Shown: piece after piece, positions 300 through 9,878 of the stretch | How the letters are laid out: each line of letters starts with the position of its first letter | How positions within the stretch are numbered: the first letter of the stretch is position 1 | Source: a virus | Lineage: Duplodnaviria; Heunggongvirae; Uroviricota; Caudoviricetes | Direction: 5' to 3' (one strand) | Virus record (IMG/VR): IMGVR_UViG_2703718826_000003 | Location: 1-9,878 of that record | Length of the DNA stretch: 9,878 bases | The notes under the pieces: generated by a model | The model's input: the letters and a program-made list of their open reading frames with translations, nothing else | Told to the model about the DNA's origin: nothing | Database searches by the model: none | Position numbers and translations under genes: made by a program

Positions 300-340
300 A
301 AAGCCATCAATATTTCTATCGATGGCTTTATCTTTTTATT
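300..340. terminator. Hairpin plus T-tract, putative intrinsic terminator (clearest on + strand, possibly bidirectional)
   Basis: Perfect 9-bp stem AAAGCCATC(300-308)/GATGGCTTT(321-329) with 12-nt loop, followed on the + strand by ATCTTTTTATT; sits between the IS30 end and the stop of the minus-strand tail fibre assembly gene. The U-tract on the minus-strand transcript is weaker. Confidence 0.45.
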
Positions 341-914
341 GCGGGGCGACTGGCCACTCAACATCCGCTGCTACTGCTGTATCAACACGATTCAACAATA
401 CCCGATATGTCTTCCATGCAGTCAGTAACGATGCCTCTTCCTCCGTCGCAATATCCAAATCTACGGCATCCTGAAGTGGCGCAATATGCTCACTGGCCAT
501 CTGCATCAGGCTGTTTTTTGTTTCTTCCGCCTTCCGGATCCGGAACAGTTTTTCTGCTTCTGCATCTTTCACCCAGGCTGTGCCGTTCCACTTCTGAAAC
601 TCCCCTTCCGGGGATAACCAGGTGACATTTTCCGGTAATGGGCCAAGTTCAGAAATAAATAACGCGTCGCCGGAAGCCACGTCATAGACGGTTTTTCCCC
701 GATGGTCTTCAACGAGATTCCACGATGCCTCATCACTGTTGAAAACGGCCACGAAGCCAGCCGGAATATCTGGCGGGGCAATATCGGTACTGTTTGCAGG
801 CAGACCTGTATGAGGTGGAATGTATGCATCACCTTCACCAATAAACTCATTGGTTCCAGCCAGTAGATTATAAATTTTTATGGTCCGTGATTGTTCACTC
901 ATTCTGAATGTCAT
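336..914 (-). CDS. tfa: Tail fibre assembly protein (Tfa / Mu-P1 U-type chaperone)
   Basis: 192-aa ORF; N-terminus [48 protein letters not shown] is the typical enterobacterial tail fibre assembly signature as I recall it. Start ATG overlaps the upstream tail-fibre stop (TAATG, minus strand 916-912), indicating translational coupling. Confidence 0.9.
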
Positions 915-2530
915 TATGCAAGCCTCACAATATAGTTAAATGCGATGTTTTTTACGGTGTTTTCTTCGTTACCCGTAGCGTTAACGGTGATGGTGTGTCC
1001 GTGGGGACCAATAATGACAGAATGGGCATGAGCACCAATGCCGATAGTGTGGTTATGGGCACCGATATATACATTGTGAGCATGCCCTCCTGCGCTCGAC
1101 GTGGTACCAGTACCTAACGCAGCGTTATAACCGGCTGATACACCATTCCCCGCGCCAGTGTGACCAACAGGTATATTGTGTGAATGAGCTCCTGCGCTAT
1201 TTGTGGTTTTTGTGCCGTAATCAAATGAACTGGTCGTTTTAGTACCGTAATCAAACGACGATGTGGTTTTCGTCCCCAAATCCGTACTGGATGCACTGGC
1301 GCTGTGGGTGTGCGATTTAATGCCGTCCTGTTCCTGAGACAATACTGCACGACCACTGGCGGGCTTGCCCTTAATCGTCCAGCTACGCATATCAGGGATC
1401 ACACCTGACGGATAAGCGGCTGCAAGTTTCGGGTATGCAGATTTGTCAAAAGTCTGCCCCTGCATCAGGGCATAACCAGACGGAACGGTATCTGATGGCC
1501 AAGGGATCGGTGCGCCAACCGGATAAAGTTCATGCGGCGAAATATACAGCGAATAAACAGAACCGTCCGTTAATCCTTCCGGCTTATTAGCAGAATATGC
1601 TGGTGAAGTATGAATCGTTACGCTGGCATTACTGGTATAATCCCATTGAATATTTACACCAGTCGCATAATTTCCAATAGCAACGTAAATATCGTAAGTG
1701 TCACCAGAAGTATTGACCCACGCAAAATTTGTAAACCCTGCCGATGTGCGCTGCCATAAAGCTCCAGTAATCCCCTTCGGATTACCGTTACCTGCACGCA
1801 AAACAAGTTCAGATATACCTGCCTGTTGAGGTGACCCCACGTTAAATCCCGCGCCACCAATCAACGTAATTGAAACAACAGAACTTGCCTGCGGCATGGT
1901 TACAGTTGCCAGCTTGAACCATCCTGCACCACCACTAAAAGACATTGTTGTGGAGTTGATTGTGCCTATAGACCGTGGGTTAAGTTCAATATCTTTAGAA
2001 CCATCAAACGAGACGCCATTGATAGCACATGCTGTCTGCAACTTGGTCGCTGTAGCCGCATTACCAGAGGTGTCCTGATTCCCTTTGGCATTGACGCCGG
2101 GAATTGAATCTTTTGACGTATAGACCTGCGCCCATTCAGACCAGTTGGCAGAATCAGTATCCCGCCGCGAACGGATATGTACGGGCGCATGGGCACCGCT
2201 CGTGCCACTCCAGCCAATGAATAACTCACCTTCGCCAGCAGCGGTGGCACCTTTAAGGTGAAGCACATTGCCATAGGGGGAAGGGTAGCCATTGTTGTAT
2301 GCCTCATACAGCTGAATCCCGGATGTTCCCTGTGCATTCGCCTCCAGGGCCGTTACGCGACCGCGAGATACCAGAGTATTGATATTAATGTCAGCCGAAC
2401 CATCGAACCTGACGCCATTAATGTTTCTGGCTGTTTTTAATTTCGTCGCGGTGTCGGCGTTCCCCGCCAGCGCCCCGGTGATCCCACCGTTGAAAGTCTG
2501 GCGTGCACTCCATGTGTTAGCCGTGCTCAA
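914..2530 (-). CDS. Tail fibre protein, variable C-terminal (receptor-binding) cassette, Sv/Sv'-like; no canonical start, frame open upstream to 2608 through the crossover site
   Basis: 538-aa ORF with two tail-fibre repeat units (GNADTATKL...[15 protein letters not shown] and [29 protein letters not shown]), a His-x-His-rich C-terminus, and a downstream coupled chaperone gene. First conventional start is TTG at 2530; in-frame translation continues upstream across the cix-like site with no stop until TAA at 2609-2611, consistent with a cassette fused to a constant 5' part by inversion. Confidence 0.85.
1202..1276 (-). repeat. In-frame 30-bp tandem coding repeat (2.5 copies) in the tail fibre gene
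   Basis: Encodes [25 protein letters not shown]. Units 1247-1276 and 1217-1246 are identical at protein level but differ at roughly 11 of 30 nucleotides, almost all synonymous. Confidence 0.7.
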
Positions 2531-2560
2531 CAGGGGGATCTTTTCACCGCTTGTGCCAAG

Positions 2561-2586
2561 TTCTCTTAAACCAAGGTTTAGGATTG
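2561..2586. other. cix/gix-type crossover site for the adjacent serine invertase
   Basis: TTCTCTTAAACC-AA-GGTTTAGGATTG: 26-bp imperfect dyad (9 of 12 half-site positions symmetric) around a central AA, with the AAACC..GGTTT core shared by hix/gix/cix/pix sites. It overlaps the invertase stop codon (2578-2580) and the tail fibre frame reads through it. Confidence 0.8.
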
Positions 2587-3138
2587 AAATGATGACGCCG
2601 GAAACTTCTTATAAAGCGTGGAAACAGCCACATCATAGATGATTGCAACCTGCTTACGGGGGATGCCCTTCTCGAGCAATCGCCGCATTTGCTGCCATGT
2701 TTCTTCTTGGTATTTAGGCCGACGCCCACCTATACGACCTTCTGCGCGAGCTGCATCAAGTCCAGCGCGTGTACGTTCAACGATAAGCTCACGTTCCATT
2801 TCTGCCAGCGCCCCCATTACGTGAAAGAAAAAGCGCCCCATTGGTGTACTGGTGTCGATGGAGTCAGTGAGACTCCGGAAGTTAATGCCTCTGTCACGCA
2901 GCTCTTCCACCAGCACAACTAAGTGACGCATGCTGCGCCCAAGACGATCTAACTTCCATACGACTAGGGTGTCACCTCTGGAAAGCATACGGAGAACCTT
3001 TTTTAACCCAGGGCGTTCAGCCTTTTTGCCGCTCGCCTTGTCCTCAAAAATTAGCTTACATCCTGCGCTTTCAAGGGCATTTCGTTGTAAAGCAGTGTTT
3101 TGTTCATTTGTTGATACGCGTACATAGCCAATTAGCAT
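2578..3138 (-). CDS. cin: Serine DNA invertase, Cin/Gin/Pin/Hin family (186 aa)
   Basis: N-terminus [22 protein letters not shown] with catalytic Ser in the RVSTNEQ motif, conserved [15 protein letters not shown] and GRIGGRRPK segments, and a C-terminal helix-turn-helix-like [13 protein letters not shown]. Length 186 aa, same as P1 Cin as I recall. Gene ends within the crossover site. Confidence 0.93.
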
Positions 3139-3265
3139 ATTTTCTGCTCACCATAGTTATTCATAGCAAGCTGCGGATTTTAATTAACAGAAACCAGTGT
3201 GTGTGGAAATCACAAAGTGCATACCGTGCCCCAATGATGTTTTATTGAAAAGCGGGGTTACTTTA
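3139..3265. promoter_or_regulatory. Divergent intergenic control region between the invertase gene and the plus-strand operon (promoters not resolved)
   Basis: 127-bp AT-rich spacer between divergent starts. One weak sigma70-like candidate for the invertase on the minus strand: -35 TTAATT (complement of 3182-3187), 16-bp spacer, -10 TATGAA (complement of 3160-3165). No confident plus-strand promoter identified by eye. Confidence 0.25.
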
Positions 3266-3547
3266 ATGTTTGATTTAACCATATTTTTTATAACCATCCT
3301 TGGAGGCGTGCATTCGTTTCTGAATGGGGTTCGTGAAAAACGTTACGAAGCGTCATGCAGGCAATTGATGGCCGAGTGTATTGCTGCCGTACTTGCAGGC
3401 TTTATAGGCATGTATTTCGCGGAATATAAGGGTATGGATGAAAGTCTTCAGAATTGCGTGACTATTATTTGCAGCATCAATAACAGGCTCATTCTTGAAA
3501 AGTTACAAAGGATTATCGATTCGTACCTCAGTAGCAATGCCTCTTAA
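3266..3547 (+). CDS. Small holin-like membrane protein (two predicted transmembrane helices); possibly LydC-like
   Basis: ORF track gives 3197-3547 from a GTG with no ribosome-binding site. ATG at 3266 is preceded by GGGG 8 nt upstream and gives a 93-aa protein with two hydrophobic segments (LTIFFITILGGVHSFL, IAAVLAGFIGMYFAEY). Start and function uncertain. Confidence 0.5.
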   Translation: MFDLTIFFITILGGVHSFLNGVREKRYEASCRQLMAECIAAVLAGFIGMYFAEYKGMDESLQNCVTIICSINNRLILEKLQRIIDSYLSSNAS

Positions 3548-3587
3548 GCAACAAATGACCGGTTGAGAAGTTACTTTGCATACCATT

Positions 3588-3609
3588 ACCTCCTGACAAC
3601 GTAGGAGGG
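3588..3609 (+). promoter_or_regulatory. Hairpin pairing the Shine-Dalgarno sequence of the downstream holin gene with an upstream anti-SD
   Basis: CCTCCT (3589-3594) and AGGAGG (3603-3608) form a 6-bp stem with an 8-nt loop; AGGAGG is the ribosome-binding site 6 nt upstream of the GTG start at 3615. Confidence 0.4.
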
Positions 3610-3614
3610 AACTT

Positions 3615-3944
3615 GTGCTTGACACACAGGAATTAGCTCCAGTTGCTATTGCGCTCCTGCTTTCAGTAATTGGTGGGATAGGCACGTTCCTGATGGATGT
3701 CCGAGACGGTCGCCAGTCTGGCAATTTGTTGGGATTGGTTACGGAGATCTTTGTTGCAGTGACAGCTGGCGCGGTGGCGTACCTATTGGGGCAACACGAG
3801 GGCTGGGAGTTATCAATTACGTACTTAATGGTAACGATAGCCAGCAATAACGGTCATGAGGTGATTTCAGGGATGAAACGAGTGAATATCGATAGCATTC
3901 TGAATGTTCTTACAAGTTTGGTGAAAAAGGGAGGCGGGAAATGA
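3615..3944 (+). CDS. lydA: Holin (LydA-like), 109 aa
   Basis: GTG start with strong AGGAGG ribosome-binding site; hydrophobic segments LAPVAIALLLSVIGGIGTFL and LLGLVTEIFVAVTAGAVAYLL, charged C-terminal tail KKGGGK; size and position match P1 lydA as I recall it. Stop overlaps the next start (ATGA). Confidence 0.7.
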   Translation: MLDTQELAPVAIALLLSVIGGIGTFLMDVRDGRQSGNLLGLVTEIFVAVTAGAVAYLLGQHEGWELSITYLMVTIASNNGHEVISGMKRVNIDSILNVLTSLVKKGGGK

Positions 3945-4384
3945 TTGGCTGGGGTGTATGCGTTCTTGCGTTAGCCTTAGCCGATCGCTATTTGCTAAAA
4001 CGCAAGGACATCACGCATTTAGAACTTGGTGATGTGGAAATTAAACCGGGTTTCATCCGGGTGCCGTTCAAATACCGGTCTAAATTCCCGTTTTTGCGCG
4101 GCGCAACAGTCAGATATTGGATCCGCGATGTTCAGAAGCCGACGACAGTGATTGAAGGCGAACAACGTTGTTTGACGTCGGCTGAACAGGGCGAAAACAG
4201 TGAATGGTTGTACATACCCACTGAATATATGGGTAAAGGAGAGCGACTGTGGCATTTCAACGTCATGGTTACGCATGGCGACTCGTTCATTAACCCGTTG
4301 TATCGGATTTTCCCTGTTACTCAGCAAATCCGCAGAAGTTACGTAATAAATCTCGCACAGGATGTGTCAGATGACGAAAAATAA
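3941..4384 (+). CDS. lydB: LydB-like protein (putative antiholin / lysis regulator), 147 aa, N-terminal membrane anchor
   Basis: ATG overlaps the holin stop (ATGA at 3941-3944) with an AGGGAGG ribosome-binding site inside the 3' end of the holin gene; N-terminal hydrophobic stretch MIGWGVCVLALALA then a soluble domain. Assignment rests on size and order relative to P1. Confidence 0.55.
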   Translation: MIGWGVCVLALALADRYLLKRKDITHLELGDVEIKPGFIRVPFKYRSKFPFLRGATVRYWIRDVQKPTTVIEGEQRCLTSAEQGENSEWLYIPTEYMGKGERLWHFNVMVTHGDSFINPLYRIFPVTQQIRRSYVINLAQDVSDDEK

Positions 4385-4973
4385 GTATGCAACGGTCGAT
4401 TTTGACCAGGTTAATGAAAAGGGGCTGAAATCCCTTATCGCGGCGATCAATAAAACCGGGGTTACGGTAATTGAGGTTGACTCCAGCAACCGCGCAACAA
4501 CGAAAGATGGCGTTAAAGTTAAAACCGCAAAGCTGGTTCTTAACGACGGACAAATCCTTGCCATACAGGTAAACGATACTGGCGATATATCGTCTGTGAA
4601 ACTGAATGGAAAAGCTATTCCTAACGCTCAGTCGCCGGATATCAAGACGCTTGGTACCGTCATGGGACAGGCGGCCCGCAAAAACTCCGCAAAATTCCAG
4701 AAATCACTGATCGCCAAAGCGAAGCGTGTAGCCAATCCGGTAGACAAGAAACCGGCAGTTAAATCCAACTTTCAGCGCCTGCAAGAAGCAAAACAGCGGA
4801 ATGCTCAGGTGGTTGCCGCTTATAAGTCCGCGCAGAATTCGGTGTCTTTCAATCAACAGCAGATCACTGATTTGCGGGCGAAGCTGGATAAGGAGACGGG
4901 CCGACTCAATAACGAAAAGGCACGGAATGGCGAACTCAAACGTCGTCTTAAGCAACTGAAAGCAGGAAATTAA
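4371..4973 (+). CDS. Hdf/DarA-family protein (short paralogue), about 200 aa, C-terminal coiled coil
   Basis: ATG at 4371 has AGGA 8 nt upstream (the ORF-track start at 4362 has none). Contains the KNSAKFQ motif followed by a predicted coiled coil; the same motif and architecture recur in the next protein. Confidence 0.6.
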   Translation: MTKNKYATVDFDQVNEKGLKSLIAAINKTGVTVIEVDSSNRATTKDGVKVKTAKLVLNDGQILAIQVNDTGDISSVKLNGKAIPNAQSPDIKTLGTVMGQAARKNSAKFQKSLIAKAKRVANPVDKKPAVKSNFQRLQEAKQRNAQVVAAYKSAQNSVSFNQQQITDLRAKLDKETGRLNNEKARNGELKRRLKQLKAGN

Positions 4974-4974
4974 C

Positions 4975-6006
4975 ATGGAACAGTTCAATATCAATAAAGG
5001 GGTGACGATCAAGCCTGGGCTTGACGTGCTTCCCCCGCCAGTGACTGATGATGAATATCGCGCATTAATGGCCGGTGAGGACCGCTATCTGATGACGGAA
5101 TCCAACACCCTGGAGGAAATCGAGGCTACGTTCTTCTATGACACGCCGATCCACTGGTGTGCTACGGATTTACTGGAGGCGATTAGTTCTACTCGTTTGC
5201 AGTTACACCGGACCATGCAGGCATTTGTCCGGGCATTGAACCAGAAGCTGAATGGCACCGGAATCTCTGCGGGGAGTGATAAAACGGGGGATGTGGCCCA
5301 GAGCGGCGCGCGCGCGATCGGCGGTGCTGAAATTGGCCGGGCACGGAACGTTAACGGGCTGCCGGTCCTGCCAGCCATTATTCCGCTCAGTGATGGTCAG
5401 ACTATCAGCATTCTGTTTCATAGCCCGACAGCGGAAAACCGGATCACCAATAGCGATACGCTGGTTGCTTTCCAGTTCTTACTGAATAAAAAAGACGTTA
5501 CTCACACCGTTGCTCCGATGAGTGGACGTGATATGACGCTGGCGCAGGTCACCATGAAACTTGCCAACCTTGCAGAGAAAAACTCGGCAAAATTCCAGCG
5601 TGCGCAGAAGAAGAAAAAAGCCCTGGTTGATGAAATAACCCAACTACAGGCTGACAGTGACCAGAAAGAGGATGCCATGAGCGACCTCGCGGATCAGGTG
5701 GCAGCGGTAGAAGGGCAGAAGGTAGATCTGGAGCAGAAAATTAACGCTGTTGCATCGGAAGCGGATTCTCTTTATGAAGAGAATGAGCGTTTGCAGACGG
5801 AGATTGATCAGCTCAATCGCACTGGTGGGCGCGAAACCATTGCTCCTGCGGGGATGACTGGTGGACACTCTCGCGCGATGACGGATCGCCTTGCAAGTAT
5901 CAAAAATCGTATGCATATGAACGGGGAAGTGACGCTCAGTAATGGTGCATCAATGAAGCAATTCATTGAGGACGGTGAAGGGTATATCCAGTTAACTGGG
6001 ATGTGA
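4975..6006 (+). CDS. DarA-like protein (antirestriction / head-morphogenesis family), 343 aa
   Basis: ATG 4975 with AGGA 7 nt upstream, 1 nt after the previous stop. Contains KNSAKFQ followed by a long heptad-like coiled coil (LVDEITQLQADSDQKEDAMSDLADQVAAVEGQKVDLEQKINAV...). Naming by analogy to the P1 darA operon from memory. Confidence 0.6.
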   Translation: MEQFNINKGVTIKPGLDVLPPPVTDDEYRALMAGEDRYLMTESNTLEEIEATFFYDTPIHWCATDLLEAISSTRLQLHRTMQAFVRALNQKLNGTGISAGSDKTGDVAQSGARAIGGAEIGRARNVNGLPVLPAIIPLSDGQTISILFHSPTAENRITNSDTLVAFQFLLNKKDVTHTVAPMSGRDMTLAQVTMKLANLAEKNSAKFQRAQKKKKALVDEITQLQADSDQKEDAMSDLADQVAAVEGQKVDLEQKINAVASEADSLYEENERLQTEIDQLNRTGGRETIAPAGMTGGHSRAMTDRLASIKNRMHMNGEVTLSNGASMKQFIEDGEGYIQLTGM

Positions 6007-7391
6007 AGACGCTGGATAAACAGGTTGATGTAACTCCCGATGAAGATGCTGTTATGCAGAAAATCAGTGGTGGCGTCTCCATCGCCGGGATTAACGACAT
6101 CATTTCCTGTGACGATTTCTACCGTTTCCAGCAGCGCGGCATGATCAAAATCACTGACTCATACGGCGTTCAGACTACAGAGTCAGGCTATAGCATTGAT
6201 TTTGTTGGTACCTATACGGACCCACTGAAGCATGCGGTTTACCCGGATCGCCGTGACGGCGCGCTGAAGTCGTCAATTGCAAAATGGGTGCTTGGTATGA
6301 TGTCGGAAGGGAATAACCGCCAGATCCGTTCGGCAGAAACATTCCTGGTTGAACTGTTTGGCTCCAATTATGGCGATGTAATCGCGTCATACGGAGATAC
6401 GCTATCCCCTGAAGCAATTCAGGAGAAAATAGCGGATGCGATCGCCAGAATGCCGGAAAAAACAAGCCAGGGGGCTACTCGTAACGGGGATTCTGAACTT
6501 GAAGTCACCAATGCCATTTTCGGTACCAATGAGTTCCGGGCGTCAGATTATGAGATCACCACAGCACAGTTTGGCACCATTGGCATTTACAGCAATAAAG
6601 CCGAGATCAAGCAGGCAATGGACGCAGCAAGCGCGCGCATCGCAGCAGAACGGGAAGCCAATCTGAATCATGCAGTCGCCGCACTGACTCAATCGTGGGT
6701 AACAGCAATCAGGGAGGCCGCCACCACAGGGAAAATCACACCTGCAATTGCGGATGTCGTAAACGACGGCTCTAAATTTATGGATGCCTATCAAATGGAT
6801 GCGGTGCAGTTGCCATCAGCCTATGGCCAACTCAGCTATCGCATGACCTACAACCTGGTATCAATGTTTACTGACCTTGCCATCCTTGGGCTGGTGGACC
6901 TTAACGAGGTTACGCCGGAATTACTCAGCATGCGCAAGAATCATGTTGAGATATTGCAGAGAATTAACACGGTTCTTGCCGGGCGCACCGATGAAGAGAA
7001 ACAGGCCGACGCTGATCGGATAAACCTGGCCCTAGGCAACATCACGGAGGAAGAAATTGCCGCCAGAAACGAGAAACAAGAAGAGTTATCATCAATACAG
7101 GGTGATGCCACCAGCATAGCTCAGTCTCTTGGGCTGAATTATCGCGTATCCACCGCCGACCTGAAGATGATGTACGCACCAAAATTCGCCGCTGGCGAGG
7201 TATTTGGGCTTCAGGAAGCCTCCGGCATGAAAGGGGTTCTTTTCCGTGCGAAAGACGCAATCAAGGCGAAATTCGGCGCTCGCTGGTTGCCAGCGAAGGC
7301 GAAGAACAGCGACTTCCCAGGTAACTGGTGGATTATCGAGACAAAACACAACGTGGCGGACGTTCTGGCCGTCATCCAACAATACGCATAA
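6003..7391 (+). CDS. Hypothetical protein of the Dar-like operon, 462 aa (possibly the C-terminal portion or partner of DarA)
   Basis: Long ORF with GTG start overlapping the upstream stop (ATGTGA at 6001-6006); coding-like composition; no motif I can assign. Confidence 0.6.
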   Translation: MKTLDKQVDVTPDEDAVMQKISGGVSIAGINDIISCDDFYRFQQRGMIKITDSYGVQTTESGYSIDFVGTYTDPLKHAVYPDRRDGALKSSIAKWVLGMMSEGNNRQIRSAETFLVELFGSNYGDVIASYGDTLSPEAIQEKIADAIARMPEKTSQGATRNGDSELEVTNAIFGTNEFRASDYEITTAQFGTIGIYSNKAEIKQAMDAASARIAAEREANLNHAVAALTQSWVTAIREAATTGKITPAIADVVNDGSKFMDAYQMDAVQLPSAYGQLSYRMTYNLVSMFTDLAILGLVDLNEVTPELLSMRKNHVEILQRINTVLAGRTDEEKQADADRINLALGNITEEEIAARNEKQEELSSIQGDATSIAQSLGLNYRVSTADLKMMYAPKFAAGEVFGLQEASGMKGVLFRAKDAIKAKFGARWLPAKAKNSDFPGNWWIIETKHNVADVLAVIQQYA

Positions 7392-7396
7392 CAGGA

Positions 7397-7416
7397 GCGC
7401 CCGGTTCGCCGGGCGT
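7397..7416 (+). other. GC-rich hairpin with UUCG tetraloop in the intergenic spacer
   Basis: GCGCCCGG-TTCG-CCGGGCGT, 7-8 bp GC stem closing a UUCG tetraloop, between the stop at 7389-7391 and the ATG at 7425; not followed by a U-tract. Confidence 0.5.
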
Positions 7417-7424
7417 CGCATAAT

Positions 7425-7865
7425 ATGGCCACATTATCTGATACAATAAAACCGAATAAAACATATCTTGAGGCGGTGCTGCGTACGGCGTTGTTAGGAA
7501 AGACAGAAGACGAATACGTTGATTTCTTCCTGTCAGGGCTACGCGGGCGATTACTGAAAAATCCCCGCCTGTACCGCAGCTATGGTCCATACTGGCCGGA
7601 AATTAAAAAATTATTACTGGAGCGCGGTTATGGTAATTTCGGTCGTCTCGTTGACCGTGACGTTCGCAAAATTTACCGTTATGACCGTCCGGCGCTGACG
7701 CTCATAGCCGCGACGCTCTACAGCCAGGAGCGTTTTGATAATGGTCAGATATACTCAGCCTGGCATTTACTGCCAGTGCCTGAAGAGGTTGACGACCAGG
7801 ACTATGAGTTTGAGTCTTACGATTTGGAAGTTGAAGCCTTGGCACAGGCTGGAGAGAAAACTTGA
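7425..7865 (+). CDS. Hypothetical protein, 146 aa, strongly acidic C-terminal tail
   Basis: ATG start after the hairpin; C-terminus PVPEEVDDQDYEFESYDLEVEALAQAGE; stop overlaps the next start (TTGA). Confidence 0.55.
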   Translation: MATLSDTIKPNKTYLEAVLRTALLGKTEDEYVDFFLSGLRGRLLKNPRLYRSYGPYWPEIKKLLLERGYGNFGRLVDRDVRKIYRYDRPALTLIAATLYSQERFDNGQIYSAWHLLPVPEEVDDQDYEFESYDLEVEALAQAGEKT

Positions 7866-8110
7866 AGAAGCGATACTACACAGTAAAGCATGGGACGCTA
7901 CGAGCATTGCAAGAGTTTGCTGATAAGCATAACGTTGAGGTGCGCAGGGAAGGGGGAAGTAAAGCTCTGCGCATGTACCGTCCTGACGGAAAATGGCGGA
8001 CGGTCGTCGATTTCAAAACTAACAGTGTTCCCCAGGGCGTCCGCGACCGGGCATTCGAAGAATGGGAGCAGATCATCATAGATAACGCATTGCTTCTGAA
8101 CGCTGATTAA
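7862..8110 (+). CDS. Hypothetical small basic protein, 82 aa, translationally coupled to the upstream gene
   Basis: TTG start with GGAGAG 7 nt upstream, overlapping the upstream stop (cTTGA); K/R-rich N-terminal half. Confidence 0.45.
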   Translation: MKKRYYTVKHGTLRALQEFADKHNVEVRREGGSKALRMYRPDGKWRTVVDFKTNSVPQGVRDRAFEEWEQIIIDNALLLNAD

Positions 8111-8120
8111 TAATCATTTA

Positions 8121-8141
8121 AAGCCCATATGATATGGGCTT
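8121..8141. repeat. Perfect 10-bp-arm palindrome (AAGCCCATAT g ATATGGGCTT)
   Basis: Lies 11 bp after the 82-aa gene stop and 22 bp before the AT-rich gene; no U-tract on either side, so an operator, RNA-processing or stability hairpin is as likely as a terminator. Confidence 0.45.
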
Positions 8142-8162
8142 AAACAACAGGATCGATATACA

Positions 8163-9203
8163 GTGTTAGTTAAATATATAGGCGAGAGTTATATGGAAAA
8201 ACCTTGGCCGGGCATGCACATTAGAACATCTTGTCTGGAGGATGGTTTCTTTAGAGCAACGCAACCAAAGTATCTTAATGATCCGTCGAGTGAGTCGCGA
8301 CTTCTTCCATTTTTTAATAAATTTTCACCAGCCGATTACGCATGGGCTAGAAATGAATTTAAGAAAATGCAACGAGATCCATCTTATGTCCCATCTATAC
8401 AAGAGTTAGAGTATTATTTAAAACCTTGCGGGAAACGATACGGAGAGGATTTTCCACACTTGTTAATCAATGAAGGTTTTACCTCAATGGATTCATATGA
8501 TGAATCTAAACTCCAAGAAATAGTAACGTACCTTAACGATTATTTAGTAGAAGCCGTAAGCTGTCATCTTGGTGTATTCTCTCTATCAAAAAGTGATTGC
8601 AATCTACACATGTGGACTCATTATGCATCGATAGGAAAGGGGTTTGCTGTAGTTTTCGATGAAACACACGATTTTTTCAAAATATATAGGCCGTGTGATG
8701 TTAGTTATAATCCAGAAGATAGAGCATCTGTAACCTATTATAAAGGCGCTGTGCGATTTAATGGCTATCCTGCGCCATCGAGGAATATAGATATAAAGAA
8801 TAAAGATAATACATTGCATGGGATCTTAAATCGAGATTCAGTTCGCGAGCTTTTTATTAATAGGCTCCTTTATACAAAAGGTGAAGAGTGGCTTCCTGAA
8901 AATGAAAGTAGAATTATTTTTCCTTTAGCTGATTGCGAGAGAAAGATAGGAAGTATTGTCTCTCCATCGATTGATGATTGCCTATTAAATGAGTATCCTG
9001 ATGTTTTTCATGACTATCATGAAATTAACTTAAAGAAAATTCCTTTTTCTGCATTCAAGCAAATTACCTTAGGGTATAACATGACTGAAAAAGATAAAAA
9101 TATAATTTTAGATAAAGTTAGTTCGAATAAAGAATTGTCTCACGTCAACGTATTATATTCAAAACTTGATATATACGGAAAGGTTGTGGTTAAGCCCATG
9201 TAA
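8163..9203 (+). CDS. AT-rich cargo gene, 346-aa protein with DUF2971-like motifs; function unknown
   Basis: GC content visibly lower than flanking phage genes. Motifs LVKYIG...FRATQPKYLNDPSSE and SCHLGVFSLS...NLHMWTHYASIGKGFAVVFDE resemble the DUF2971 family as I recall it (N-terminal LYKY, NDP-E, MW-HYA). Start is GTG 8163 or ATG 8193. Confidence 0.6.
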   Translation: MLVKYIGESYMEKPWPGMHIRTSCLEDGFFRATQPKYLNDPSSESRLLPFFNKFSPADYAWARNEFKKMQRDPSYVPSIQELEYYLKPCGKRYGEDFPHLLINEGFTSMDSYDESKLQEIVTYLNDYLVEAVSCHLGVFSLSKSDCNLHMWTHYASIGKGFAVVFDETHDFFKIYRPCDVSYNPEDRASVTYYKGAVRFNGYPAPSRNIDIKNKDNTLHGILNRDSVRELFINRLLYTKGEEWLPENESRIIFPLADCERKIGSIVSPSIDDCLLNEYPDVFHDYHEINLKKIPFSAFKQITLGYNMTEKDKNIILDKVSSNKELSHVNVLYSKLDIYGKVVVKPM

Positions 9204-9287
9204 TAATACGCTTATGTCTACACTTCATGATAAATACCTTCCTTAACTTAGGAAGGTTAGTTGTAGGTTTACGCAGAAAGTAACAAA

Positions 9288-9320
9288 TAACCTTCGTAGG
9301 TTATAGAATATTATTCTTTC
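9288..9320 (+). terminator. Weak terminator candidate after the AT-rich gene
   Basis: Stem TAACCT / AGGTTA with TCGT loop (9288-9303) followed by the T-rich TAGAATATTATTCTTTCC; a second small hairpin ACCTTCC/GGAAGGT lies at 9236-9257. Confidence 0.3.
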
Positions 9321-9347
9321 CGGTGAGTATTCCTTGAGGAACTCTAG

Positions 9348-9363
9348 GGAAGGTGCGAATAAG
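9348..9363. repeat. IS5 terminal inverted repeat (16 bp)
   Basis: GGAAGGTGCGAATAAG at the junction with the AT-rich flank. Confidence 0.8.
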
Positions 9364-9493
9364 TGGGGAAATTCTTCTCGGCTGACTCAGTCATTTCATT
9401 TCTTCATGTTTGAGCCGATTTTTTCTCCCGTAAATGCCTTGAATCAGCCTATTTAGACCGTTTCTTCGCCATTTAAGGCGTTATCCCCAGTTT

Positions 9494-9878
<385 letters not shown>

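Follow-up and report, generated by a model that had tools for sequence, protein, structure and literature searches.

Why do two open reading frames, of 343 and 462 codons, abut with an ATGTGA overlap in what looks like the darA operon of phage P1? The window (the whole analysed stretch of 9,878 nucleotides) contains the confirmed frames at 4362/4371–4973 (203/200 aa), 4975–6006 (343 aa) and 6003–7391 (462 aa, with a GTG start). The initial annotation compared them with the Dar genes of P1 and proposed for the last two a split or rearranged darA, or a frameshift. We are highly confident that the region comes from a plasmid-prophage of the P1 family (Punavirus, IncY) in which a single deletion, 16,938 bp long in P1 coordinates, has fused the darA operon to a block made up of the darB 3' end, ulx and lxc. 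As read from the alignments, the 343- and 462-aa pair is two gene fragments, neither a new gene nor a split one.

Table 1. Features of the fused dar locus (window coordinates)
Feature	Position	Strand	Basis or remark
LPdar, Lpa-dependent late promoter of the darA operon	3568..3586	+	identity to the P1 region
lydA (holin), gene 1 of the darA operon	3615..3944	+	Pfam Phage_holin_3_3; collinear with P1 lydA
lydB (LydA antagonist)	3941..4384	+	Pfam LydB, 344 bits, full length
hdf, intact	4362..4973	+	203 aa from ATG 4362, per P1 annotation
KNSAKFQ motif in Hdf	4680..4700	+	direct sequence reading and BLASTP alignment
darA', truncated darA	4975..6006	+	DNA follows P1 darA to window 5996; protein diverges from residue 342
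KNSAKFQ motif in DarA'	5578..5598	+	direct sequence reading and BLASTP alignment
Deletion junction	5993..5996	+	4-bp microhomology TAAC common to darA and darB
'darB, 3' remnant of darB	5994..7391	+	codons 1791–2255 and stop; 98% identical to the P1 darB 3' end
ulx, intact, 146 aa	7425..7865	+	PHROG 1629 "Ulx-like anti-restriction", E = 4.5e-66; collinear with P1 ulx
lxc, intact	7862..8110	+	collinear with P1 lxc

The darA operon and its DarA_N paralogues

The proposed likeness to the P1 operon is borne out at the nucleotide level: in megablast the lydA-lydB-hdf-darA region is 98–99% identical to P1 and P7, the gene order is the same as in these phages, LPdar is identical, and ulx and lxc are intact. 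In local BLAST, window 1979–5996 corresponds to P1 32818–28802; the part from 4371 to 5996 matches P1 lydB-hdf-darA at 98% identity, and over 3555–3620 no base differs (100% identity) from the P1 region with the annotated -22 and -10 elements of LPdar (L001 2198–2216). We also observe cin 3 kb upstream.

In P1, the inner surface of the capsid carries 55 pairs of Hdf and DarA, which recruit the other Dar proteins. The Hdf encoded here differs from P1 Hdf at 2 amino acids (protein comparison) and matches PHROG 1620 "Hdf-like antirestriction" with E = 4.7e-80. RefSeq starts hdf at ATG 4371 (200 aa), and an AGGA stands about 9 nt 5' of that ATG.

The initial annotation noticed the heptapeptide KNSAKFQ in this protein and in the 343-aa one and considered the two to be paralogues; both points hold. 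The motif occupies residues 107–113 of Hdf (in the 203-aa numbering), where K is next, and residues 202–208 of the 343-aa protein, where R is next. The Pfam gathering score for DarA_N (PF18788) is 27 bits; residues 13–109 of Hdf (77.3 bits) and residues 66–204 of the 343-aa protein (146.6 bits) are both above it, and in both proteins the heptapeptide is immediately C-terminal to the match. Direct BLASTP of the two gives 31% identity over 90 aa, the alignment ending at the motif (E = 5e-4, for a single comparison). A further alignment, that of the Hdf PHROG profile, covers residues 166–287 of the 343-aa protein (E = 5.4e-5), extending into the helical part.

Hdf and the truncated DarA (DarA') both fit the DarA_N family (PF18788; PMC5512222), with no difference at the domain level. 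Hdf and DarA are indeed paralogues through this domain, which is already published and covered by PF18788: in the description by Iyer et al. (2017), DarA-N makes up the N-terminal part of DarA and is the only domain that Hdf has (PMC5512222). The homology of Hdf to the N-terminal region of DarA, stated in the initial annotation, is correct. A conserved "NX+" motif is mentioned for the domain (PMC5512222). The long helix of the 343-aa protein past the motif is consistent with sub-threshold coiled-coil Pfam matches at residues 199–283. Such a helix after KNSAKFQ also agrees with the alpha-helix domains that cryo-EM shows in P1 DarA and Hdf (PMC12810830).

The 343-aa product consists of DarA residues 1–341, with 9 residue differences from P1, followed by Gly-Met-stop from darB DNA in the wrong frame; the full-length DarA of 639 aa is not encoded. 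In P1 DarA, DarA_N occupies residues 66–204 and DarA_C residues 411–472, and by Pfam DarA_C is absent from both the 343-aa and the 462-aa frame. The ordered part of DarA spans residues 70–382, with penton-binding loops at 321–326 and 342–346, and residues 1–69 are the proposed N-terminal fragment removed by Pro (PMC12810830). DarA' lacks the whole C-terminal part, DarA_C included, and a part of the penton-binding domain (loop 342–346). The RefSeq label for it is "internal head protein, incomplete, missing C-terminus".

The junction and the darB remnant

In a three-way alignment of the window, P1 darA and P1 darB, identity changes over from darA to darB exactly at TAAC. The two copies of this tetranucleotide lie at P1 28805–28802 in darA (codons 340–341) and at P1 11867–11864 in darB (codons 1790–1791), and the reading frames of the two blocks do not match across the join. 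Counted on P1, the gap from darA codon 341 to darB codon 1791 amounts to 16,938 bp and takes in darA codons 342–639, ddrA, ddrB, hxr, ssb, lyz, pro, prt and darB codons 1–1790; in the window, darA' runs straight into the darB remnant ('darB), with no ddrA or ddrB between them. The deletion runs from one TAAC copy to the other, the probable route being microhomology-mediated illegitimate recombination. It left the 465 codons of 'darB without a promoter, a start codon or a ribosome-binding site of their own, and darA' now ends at a TGA not in the darB frame. Hdf, Ulx and Lxc are intact.

Beyond the junction, local BLAST equates window 5993–8110 with P1 11867–9750; this block comprises the final 462 darB codons followed by ulx and lxc and is 98% identical to P1. 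Window 5993–7500 taken against the darB 3' end and ulx also gives a 98% match. Regarding the earlier proposal of a split or rearranged darA, the sizes indeed do not fit the 639-aa DarA and the rearrangement is real; however, the 462-aa frame is not a half of darA but residues 1794–2255 of DarB, with 8 substitutions relative to P1 (protein comparison). The GTG start at 6003, assigned by the ORF caller, is the internal DarB Val1794, the first start-like codon that follows the stop at 5976 in this frame.

The overlap is as initially described. At 6001–6006, ATG-TGA closes the 343-aa frame and GTG 6003 opens the 462-aa one, and no properly spaced Shine-Dalgarno sequence was found before this GTG restart. 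The sole purine-rich stretch 5' of the GTG is GGGA (5998–6001), 1 nt away, which by its spacing is too near for a Shine-Dalgarno role. Between the stops at 5976 and 6004 there is no slippery heptamer (X XXY YYZ); positions 5979–6006 read AGGGTATATCCAGTTAACTGGGATGTGA.

The frame of 'darB is open over all 462 codons, and no Pfam domain was found in its translation. In P1 DarB the domains are at residues 145–290, 833–911 and 1455–1517, with the methylase and the helicase all before residue 1517, and the capsid-targeting signal is within the first 30 residues (PMC9024508). The 2255-aa DarB is not encoded here: the N-terminal capsid-targeting signal, the N6-adenine methyltransferase and the SF2 helicase are all gone, and RefSeq labels the remnant "helicase, incomplete, missing N-terminus". 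Between 'darB and its nearest intact allele there are 11 synonymous and 5 nonsynonymous differences, which are most likely older than the deletion and uninformative on selection.

The P1-homologous block ends at window 8110, the end of lxc; 3' of lxc, P1 has the res-mod genes, whereas a DUF2971 gene and IS5 are found here. Ulx is a Dar component that helps the incorporation of DarB in P1, and lxc is a modulator of the C1 repressor.

Recurrence of the junction and the host element

In megablast of window 4371–5996, none of the 19 P1-type phage records matches past 5996, and of 699 plasmids 697 likewise stop there; intact darA and darB stand far apart in 697 of the 699 P1-like plasmids. Of 678 complete E. 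coli genomes that bear P1, 3 have the same junction base for base; an identical one was found in at least 8 independent assemblies. The darA'–'darB arrangement was not found in diverged relatives and was seen in one clonal lineage only. The exact 343-aa product occurs on 413 contigs and the exact 462-aa product on 323, and RefSeq flags both frames in the junction-bearing genomes as pseudogenes.

Across 8 assemblies, the sole variable position of window 3649–8148 is 7848; there are no substitutions in darA' and 'darB, which gives no power for a selection test. Because the copies are clonal and without substitutions in these frames, their persistence is uninformative on selection. Hundreds of contigs belong to the lineage, and an arrangement this common is at least not a harmful one.

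Two defective P1-derived IncY cargo plasmids of E. coli, plasmid A of strain H15 (NZ_CP010179.1) and plasmid I (NZ_LT883139.1), carry a dar block 100% identical to that of the window, with the same junction. A copy in the chromosome record of NCTC9040 is 99.98% identical over window 320–9878, again with the same junction. The first 286 positions of the window are an IS30 end, while NCTC9040 carries IS1 at that place; therefore, the window comes from another member of the lineage. In sister copies IS1 is inserted in lydC or lydA, and the host element is rich in IS1, IS5 and IS30 copies.

The host element was considered in one complete genome, NCTC9040, where the 118 kb around the locus retain only about one third of P1 and only 23 of the 48 kb of its other half. 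In this 118-kb region, P1 11868–28801 and 36492–47400 have no match except IS copies; gp22, gp23 and an lpa homologue are present; prt, pro, lyz, tub, sit, bplA, gp5, gp6, gp7, gp24, gp25, gp26, repL and ban are absent, the region being also without the tail tube, tape measure, baseplate and lytic replicon. With the portal, protease, lysozyme and tail genes gone from these 118 kb, we infer that no virion could be built and, therefore, that the Dar system could not work as such.

Compared with a functional P1 Dar system, the sequences point to a complete Hdf and Ulx, and not to a complete DarA, ddrA/ddrB, DarB or the ability to build virions. We infer that darA' and 'darB are relics on a clonally spreading, IS-riddled cargo plasmid. 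Hdf and DarA' could still be made, considering the intact LPdar and the lpa homologue in NCTC9040; the GTGA start/stop overlap could in principle permit some reinitiation on 'darB.

Other explanations and biological meaning

The deletion might instead be ascribed to an insertion sequence (an IS1 adjacent deletion or IS–IS recombination) or to a site-specific recombinase such as Cin: copies of IS1, IS5 and IS30 abound in the element, P1 has IS1 within the deleted interval, and cin is 3 kb upstream. We consider this very unlikely; darA passes directly into darB with no IS sequence or end at the junction, the only common sequence, TAAC, is much shorter than a cix site, and both breakpoints are in coding sequence without a recombination site annotated in the P1 record. 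The IS-mediated deletion was rejected on the absence of an IS remnant at the junction. A selected functional module, in which DarA' and a C-terminal DarB protein would be produced by termination-reinitiation, possibly against superinfecting P1-like phages, seems to us very unlikely, although LPdar is intact, the GTG/TGA overlap looks like that of coupled genes, 'darB keeps an open frame over its 462 codons, the lineage is widespread (the 413 and 323 contigs), and DarA' retains its hexon-binding and alpha-helix domains, which contact the capsid. Once darB DNA is read in a frame shifted by one base, both the stop and the "start" appear automatically, without any design, and the Shine-Dalgarno-like sequence is unusably near the GTG; the 'darB remnant has neither a recognisable domain nor the DarB packaging signal. 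Moreover, RefSeq calls both frames pseudogenes, and the element is decaying by IS insertions, including those in lydC and lydA of the sister copies. Programmed frameshifting or a coupled restart was rejected, since there is no slippery site and no usable Shine-Dalgarno sequence, and the conservation is limited to one clone.

We give practically no credence to the reading that the real darA is intact and that a frameshift in one long gene, either an error of sequencing or assembly or a recent point change, produced the 343/462 split. As in a frameshifted gene, the frames abut with a 4-nt overlap and the second one has no ribosome-binding site; however, the DNA past 5996 has no similarity to darA and is darB codons 1791–2255, the two products add up to 805 aa (343 + 462), unlike the 639-aa DarA, and DarA_C is in neither of them. 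At least 8 independent assemblies also agree on every base of the junction, because of which resequencing would not help. The frameshifted darA was thus rejected, as the alignments place darB, not darA, after 5996; no single-base frameshift could restore darA, and 4975–7391 is not a single uninterrupted gene.

Returning to a single deletion that left two gene fragments, one further role can be imagined: Hdf and DarA', expressed from LPdar under Lpa, might act as a dominant-negative anti-phage factor from a decayed prophage, which we regard as highly improbable. Both proteins retain the hexon-binding and alpha-helix domains that touch the capsid. Lpa could come from the resident element or from a P1-like phage that superinfects, and Hdf and DarA' would occupy the 55 penton-hexon sites of the incoming phage capsids. 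If this is true, the loading of DdrA, DarB and Ulx would be blocked, and the progeny would be restriction-sensitive or mis-sized.

We believe that the finding has little biological weight: the dar genes, the Hdf–DarA paralogy and DarA_N are published, and RefSeq already marks the pseudogenes. It calls for caution in similar scans: where two frames abut and a start overlaps a stop, they may be the fused remains of two unrelated genes that lie 17 kb apart, and not one split gene. The junction (…CCAGTTAAC joined to TGGGATG…) is a marker for a clonal lineage of E. coli cargo plasmids of the IncY type, which are defective and derived from P1.

Gene content of the window and the Hdf–DarA relationship

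A six-frame ORF list and similarity searches identify the window as a P1-family segment (Punavirus, IncY plasmid prophage), its plus strand being the minus strand of phage P1 (NC_005856.1).

Features of the window (window positions)
Feature	Position	Strand	Remark
IS30 end	1–286
U'	336–914	minus	orphan tail-fibre gene
Sv'	914–2530	minus	orphan tail-fibre gene
cin	2578–3138	minus	invertase
lydC	3266–3547
LPdar	3568–3586		late promoter, identical to P1
lydA	3615–3944
lydB	3941–4384
hdf	4362–4973
343-aa ORF (darA')	4975–6006
462-aa ORF ('darB)	6003–7391
ulx	7425–7865
lxc	7862–8110
DUF2971 gene	8163–9203		low G+C
IS5	9345–9878

The initial annotation described a Dar-like operon with two paralogous proteins sharing a KNSAKFQ motif, and this description holds. 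The motif is encoded at 4680–4700 (Hdf) and 5578–5598 (343-aa protein), and the proteins are related above chance by three measures: the Pfam domain DarA_N (PF18788; 77.3 bits in Hdf and 146.6 bits in the 343-aa protein, gathering score 27 bits), BLASTP (31% identity over 90 residues ending in KNSAKFQ, E = 5e-4) and the Hdf PHROG profile. The alignment of the last with the 343-aa protein covers residues 166–287, and the likeness therefore continues into the helical part. The "coiled coil" noted after the motif reflects the alpha-helix domain located there (Hdf residues 135–203; PMC12810830). The paralogy had been described before (Iyer et al., PMC5512222), and in a cryo-EM study from 2026, 55 DarA–Hdf pairs were located at penton–hexon junctions on the inner capsid surface (PMC12810830).

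Two start codons can be considered for hdf: ATG 4362 (203 aa; P1 annotation and the cryo-EM paper), with only a directly abutting AGG, and ATG 4371 (200 aa; RefSeq), with AGGA about 9 nt upstream. U' and Sv' form an orphan alternative tail-fibre cassette beside cin; the constant S part, R and the baseplate genes are absent nearby, and RefSeq labels the cassette "phage tail protein, missing N-terminus". Its P1 homology breaks off at 1979, and the distal part (273–1979), which matches other P1-like plasmids (e.g., NZ_CP009051.1), is the usual mosaic variable region. The DUF2971 gene (346 aa, PHROG 1762, G+C 0.32–0.37) lies directly after lxc and is followed by IS5; the same slot in P1 holds the EcoP1I mod-res genes. 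P1-like elements vary at this res-mod slot, and the DUF2971 gene there may have an accessory or defence role.

The darA–darB junction

All the sequence-level statements of the initial annotation are correct, including the overlap of the ATG-TGA end of the 343-aa ORF with the GTG of the 462-aa ORF (6001–6006) and the lack of a properly spaced Shine-Dalgarno before that GTG. The proposed split or rearranged darA, or frameshift, is right only in the spirit of "rearranged": the second ORF belongs to the darB tail, so neither a split darA nor a frameshift applies. When 4371–7391 is compared with phage records by megablast, the 98–99% matches to P1, P7 and relatives extend only to 5996, and a separate search with the rest finds the 3' end of darB and ulx at 98% from 5993 on. 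In a three-way alignment the identity switches from darA to darB inside TAAC (5993–5996), the sole sequence common to both parents at the breakpoint.

In P1 coordinates the last darA-side position is 28802 and the first on the darB side is 11867; the deletion therefore comprises 16,938 bp. According to the P1 annotation, it removed darA codons 342–639, ddrA, ddrB/iddB, hxr, isaB, IS1, isaA, ssb, lyz, lydD/lydE, pro, prt and darB codons 1–1790. The two genes are joined out of frame. The darA frame gives residues 1–341 and Gly-Met before it meets a TGA that is not in the darB frame. In the darB frame, a stop lies upstream at 5976 and the first start-like codon thereafter is the GTG of DarB Val1794, so the ORF caller begins there and obtains exactly 462 residues (DarB 1794–2255).

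An IS-mediated or Cin-mediated origin of the deletion is, in our opinion, highly unlikely, as neither IS sequence nor a recombinase site was found at the junction, just the 4 shared bp. We infer that microhomology-mediated illegitimate recombination explains the deletion most simply; replication slippage or end joining would then have joined darA to darB.

Intact P1 DarA contains DarA_N (66–204) and DarA_C (411–472); DarA' keeps DarA_N and the helix, but DarA_C is gone, as is part of the penton-binding domain, with the loop 342–346. Intact P1 DarB contains a methyltransferase (145–290) and helicase motifs (833–911 and 1455–1517), whereas a Pfam search found no recognisable domain in 'darB. The fragment also lacks the capsid-targeting signal, i.e., the N-terminal 30 residues of DarB (PMC9024508).

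Distribution of the junction

Of the 678 complete E. coli genomes with P1-like sequence, only 3 contain the 300-bp junction sequence intact (H15 plasmid A; plasmid I, NZ_LT883139.1; the NCTC9040 chromosome record, NZ_LR134247.1), the two halves lying far apart in the remaining ones; among plasmids the junction occurs in 2 of 699. A large protein collection contains the exact 343-aa product on 413 contigs and the exact 462-aa product on 323, and these truncated ORFs have even given rise to PHROGs families with profile lengths of 343 and 462. Eight assemblies examined differ by a single substitution (7848) across 3649–8148, with flanks varying by IS1, IS5 and IS30 events. In RefSeq both are marked as pseudogenes, the 343-aa ORF as "internal head protein, missing C-terminus" and the 462-aa ORF as "helicase, missing N-terminus"; the genes are already known and the deletion scar is already flagged in public annotation. 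Considering the recurrence of the junction and the near-identity of the eight assemblies, the deletion is genuine; it marks one recent plasmid lineage spreading clonally.

NCTC9040, the closest complete genome, has 2 mismatches to the window over 320–9878. It carries IS1 where the window has its IS30 end, so the window derives from another member of this plasmid lineage. In sister plasmids (L003 and L005) IS1 lies in lydC (collinearity ends at about 3485) or in lydA (about 3648). The former insertion goes with loss of cin and the tail-fibre cassette; with the latter, lydA is also cut to 95 aa. The operon decay continues from the upstream side in these copies. Protein cluster P0018, that of the 462-aa ORF, also includes a different DarB C-terminal ORF (557 aa, 247 contigs; "lysozyme (plasmid)" in one source), which may be another darB truncation or fusion from a separate P1-like lineage.

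Residual expression and the host element

LPdar is intact and an lpa homologue is present; hence, induction may still lead to late synthesis of Hdf and DarA(1–341). It seems to us extremely improbable that DarA(1–341) together with Hdf competes in a dominant-negative manner within the capsids of superinfecting P1-like phages. Reinitiation on 'darB at the GTGA overlap could occur in principle; however, reading darB one base out of frame is by itself enough to create this overlap, and a usable ribosome-binding site is lacking. Compared with its nearest intact allele (E. fergusonii NZ_CP099340.1), 'darB is 98.8% identical, with 11 synonymous and 5 nonsynonymous codon changes, most likely ordinary allelic variation older than the deletion; as the copies are clonal, they provide no power to test selection since then.

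The host element was checked in one genome by comparing 118 kb joined around the NCTC9040 locus with P1. IS copies aside, only four segments of the first 47.4 kb of P1 remain: lox-cre-ref (P1 1–2506), lxc-ulx-'darB (P1 9750–11867), darA'-hdf-lyd-cin-Sv' (P1 28802–32818) and a cix fragment. The other half retains 23 of 48 kb: gp21'–gp22–gp23, par and rep; pmgM–pap; and phd/doc, lpa and pacAB. A frameshifted c1 is retained too. The gaps hold IS elements and cargo (encapsulin with Dyp peroxidase, rclA, MobH relaxase; ttr genes in H15).

The NCTC9040 copy of the decayed IncY/P1-derived element, with repA/parAB, MobH relaxase, encapsulin with Dyp peroxidase and many IS copies, lies entirely within the chromosome record (about 2,121,000–2,213,000) and adjoins a Mu-like prophage; in H15 and LT883139 the element is a 116–119 kb plasmid. 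The chromosomal placement is either integration via IS copies or an assembly join.

The portal, prohead protease, lysozyme, tail tube, tape measure and baseplate genes, repL and ban are absent from the 118 kb. Judging from this gene content, the host element would be unable to assemble a virion; since Dar acts via capsid-packaged proteins, the antirestriction system would be non-functional here.
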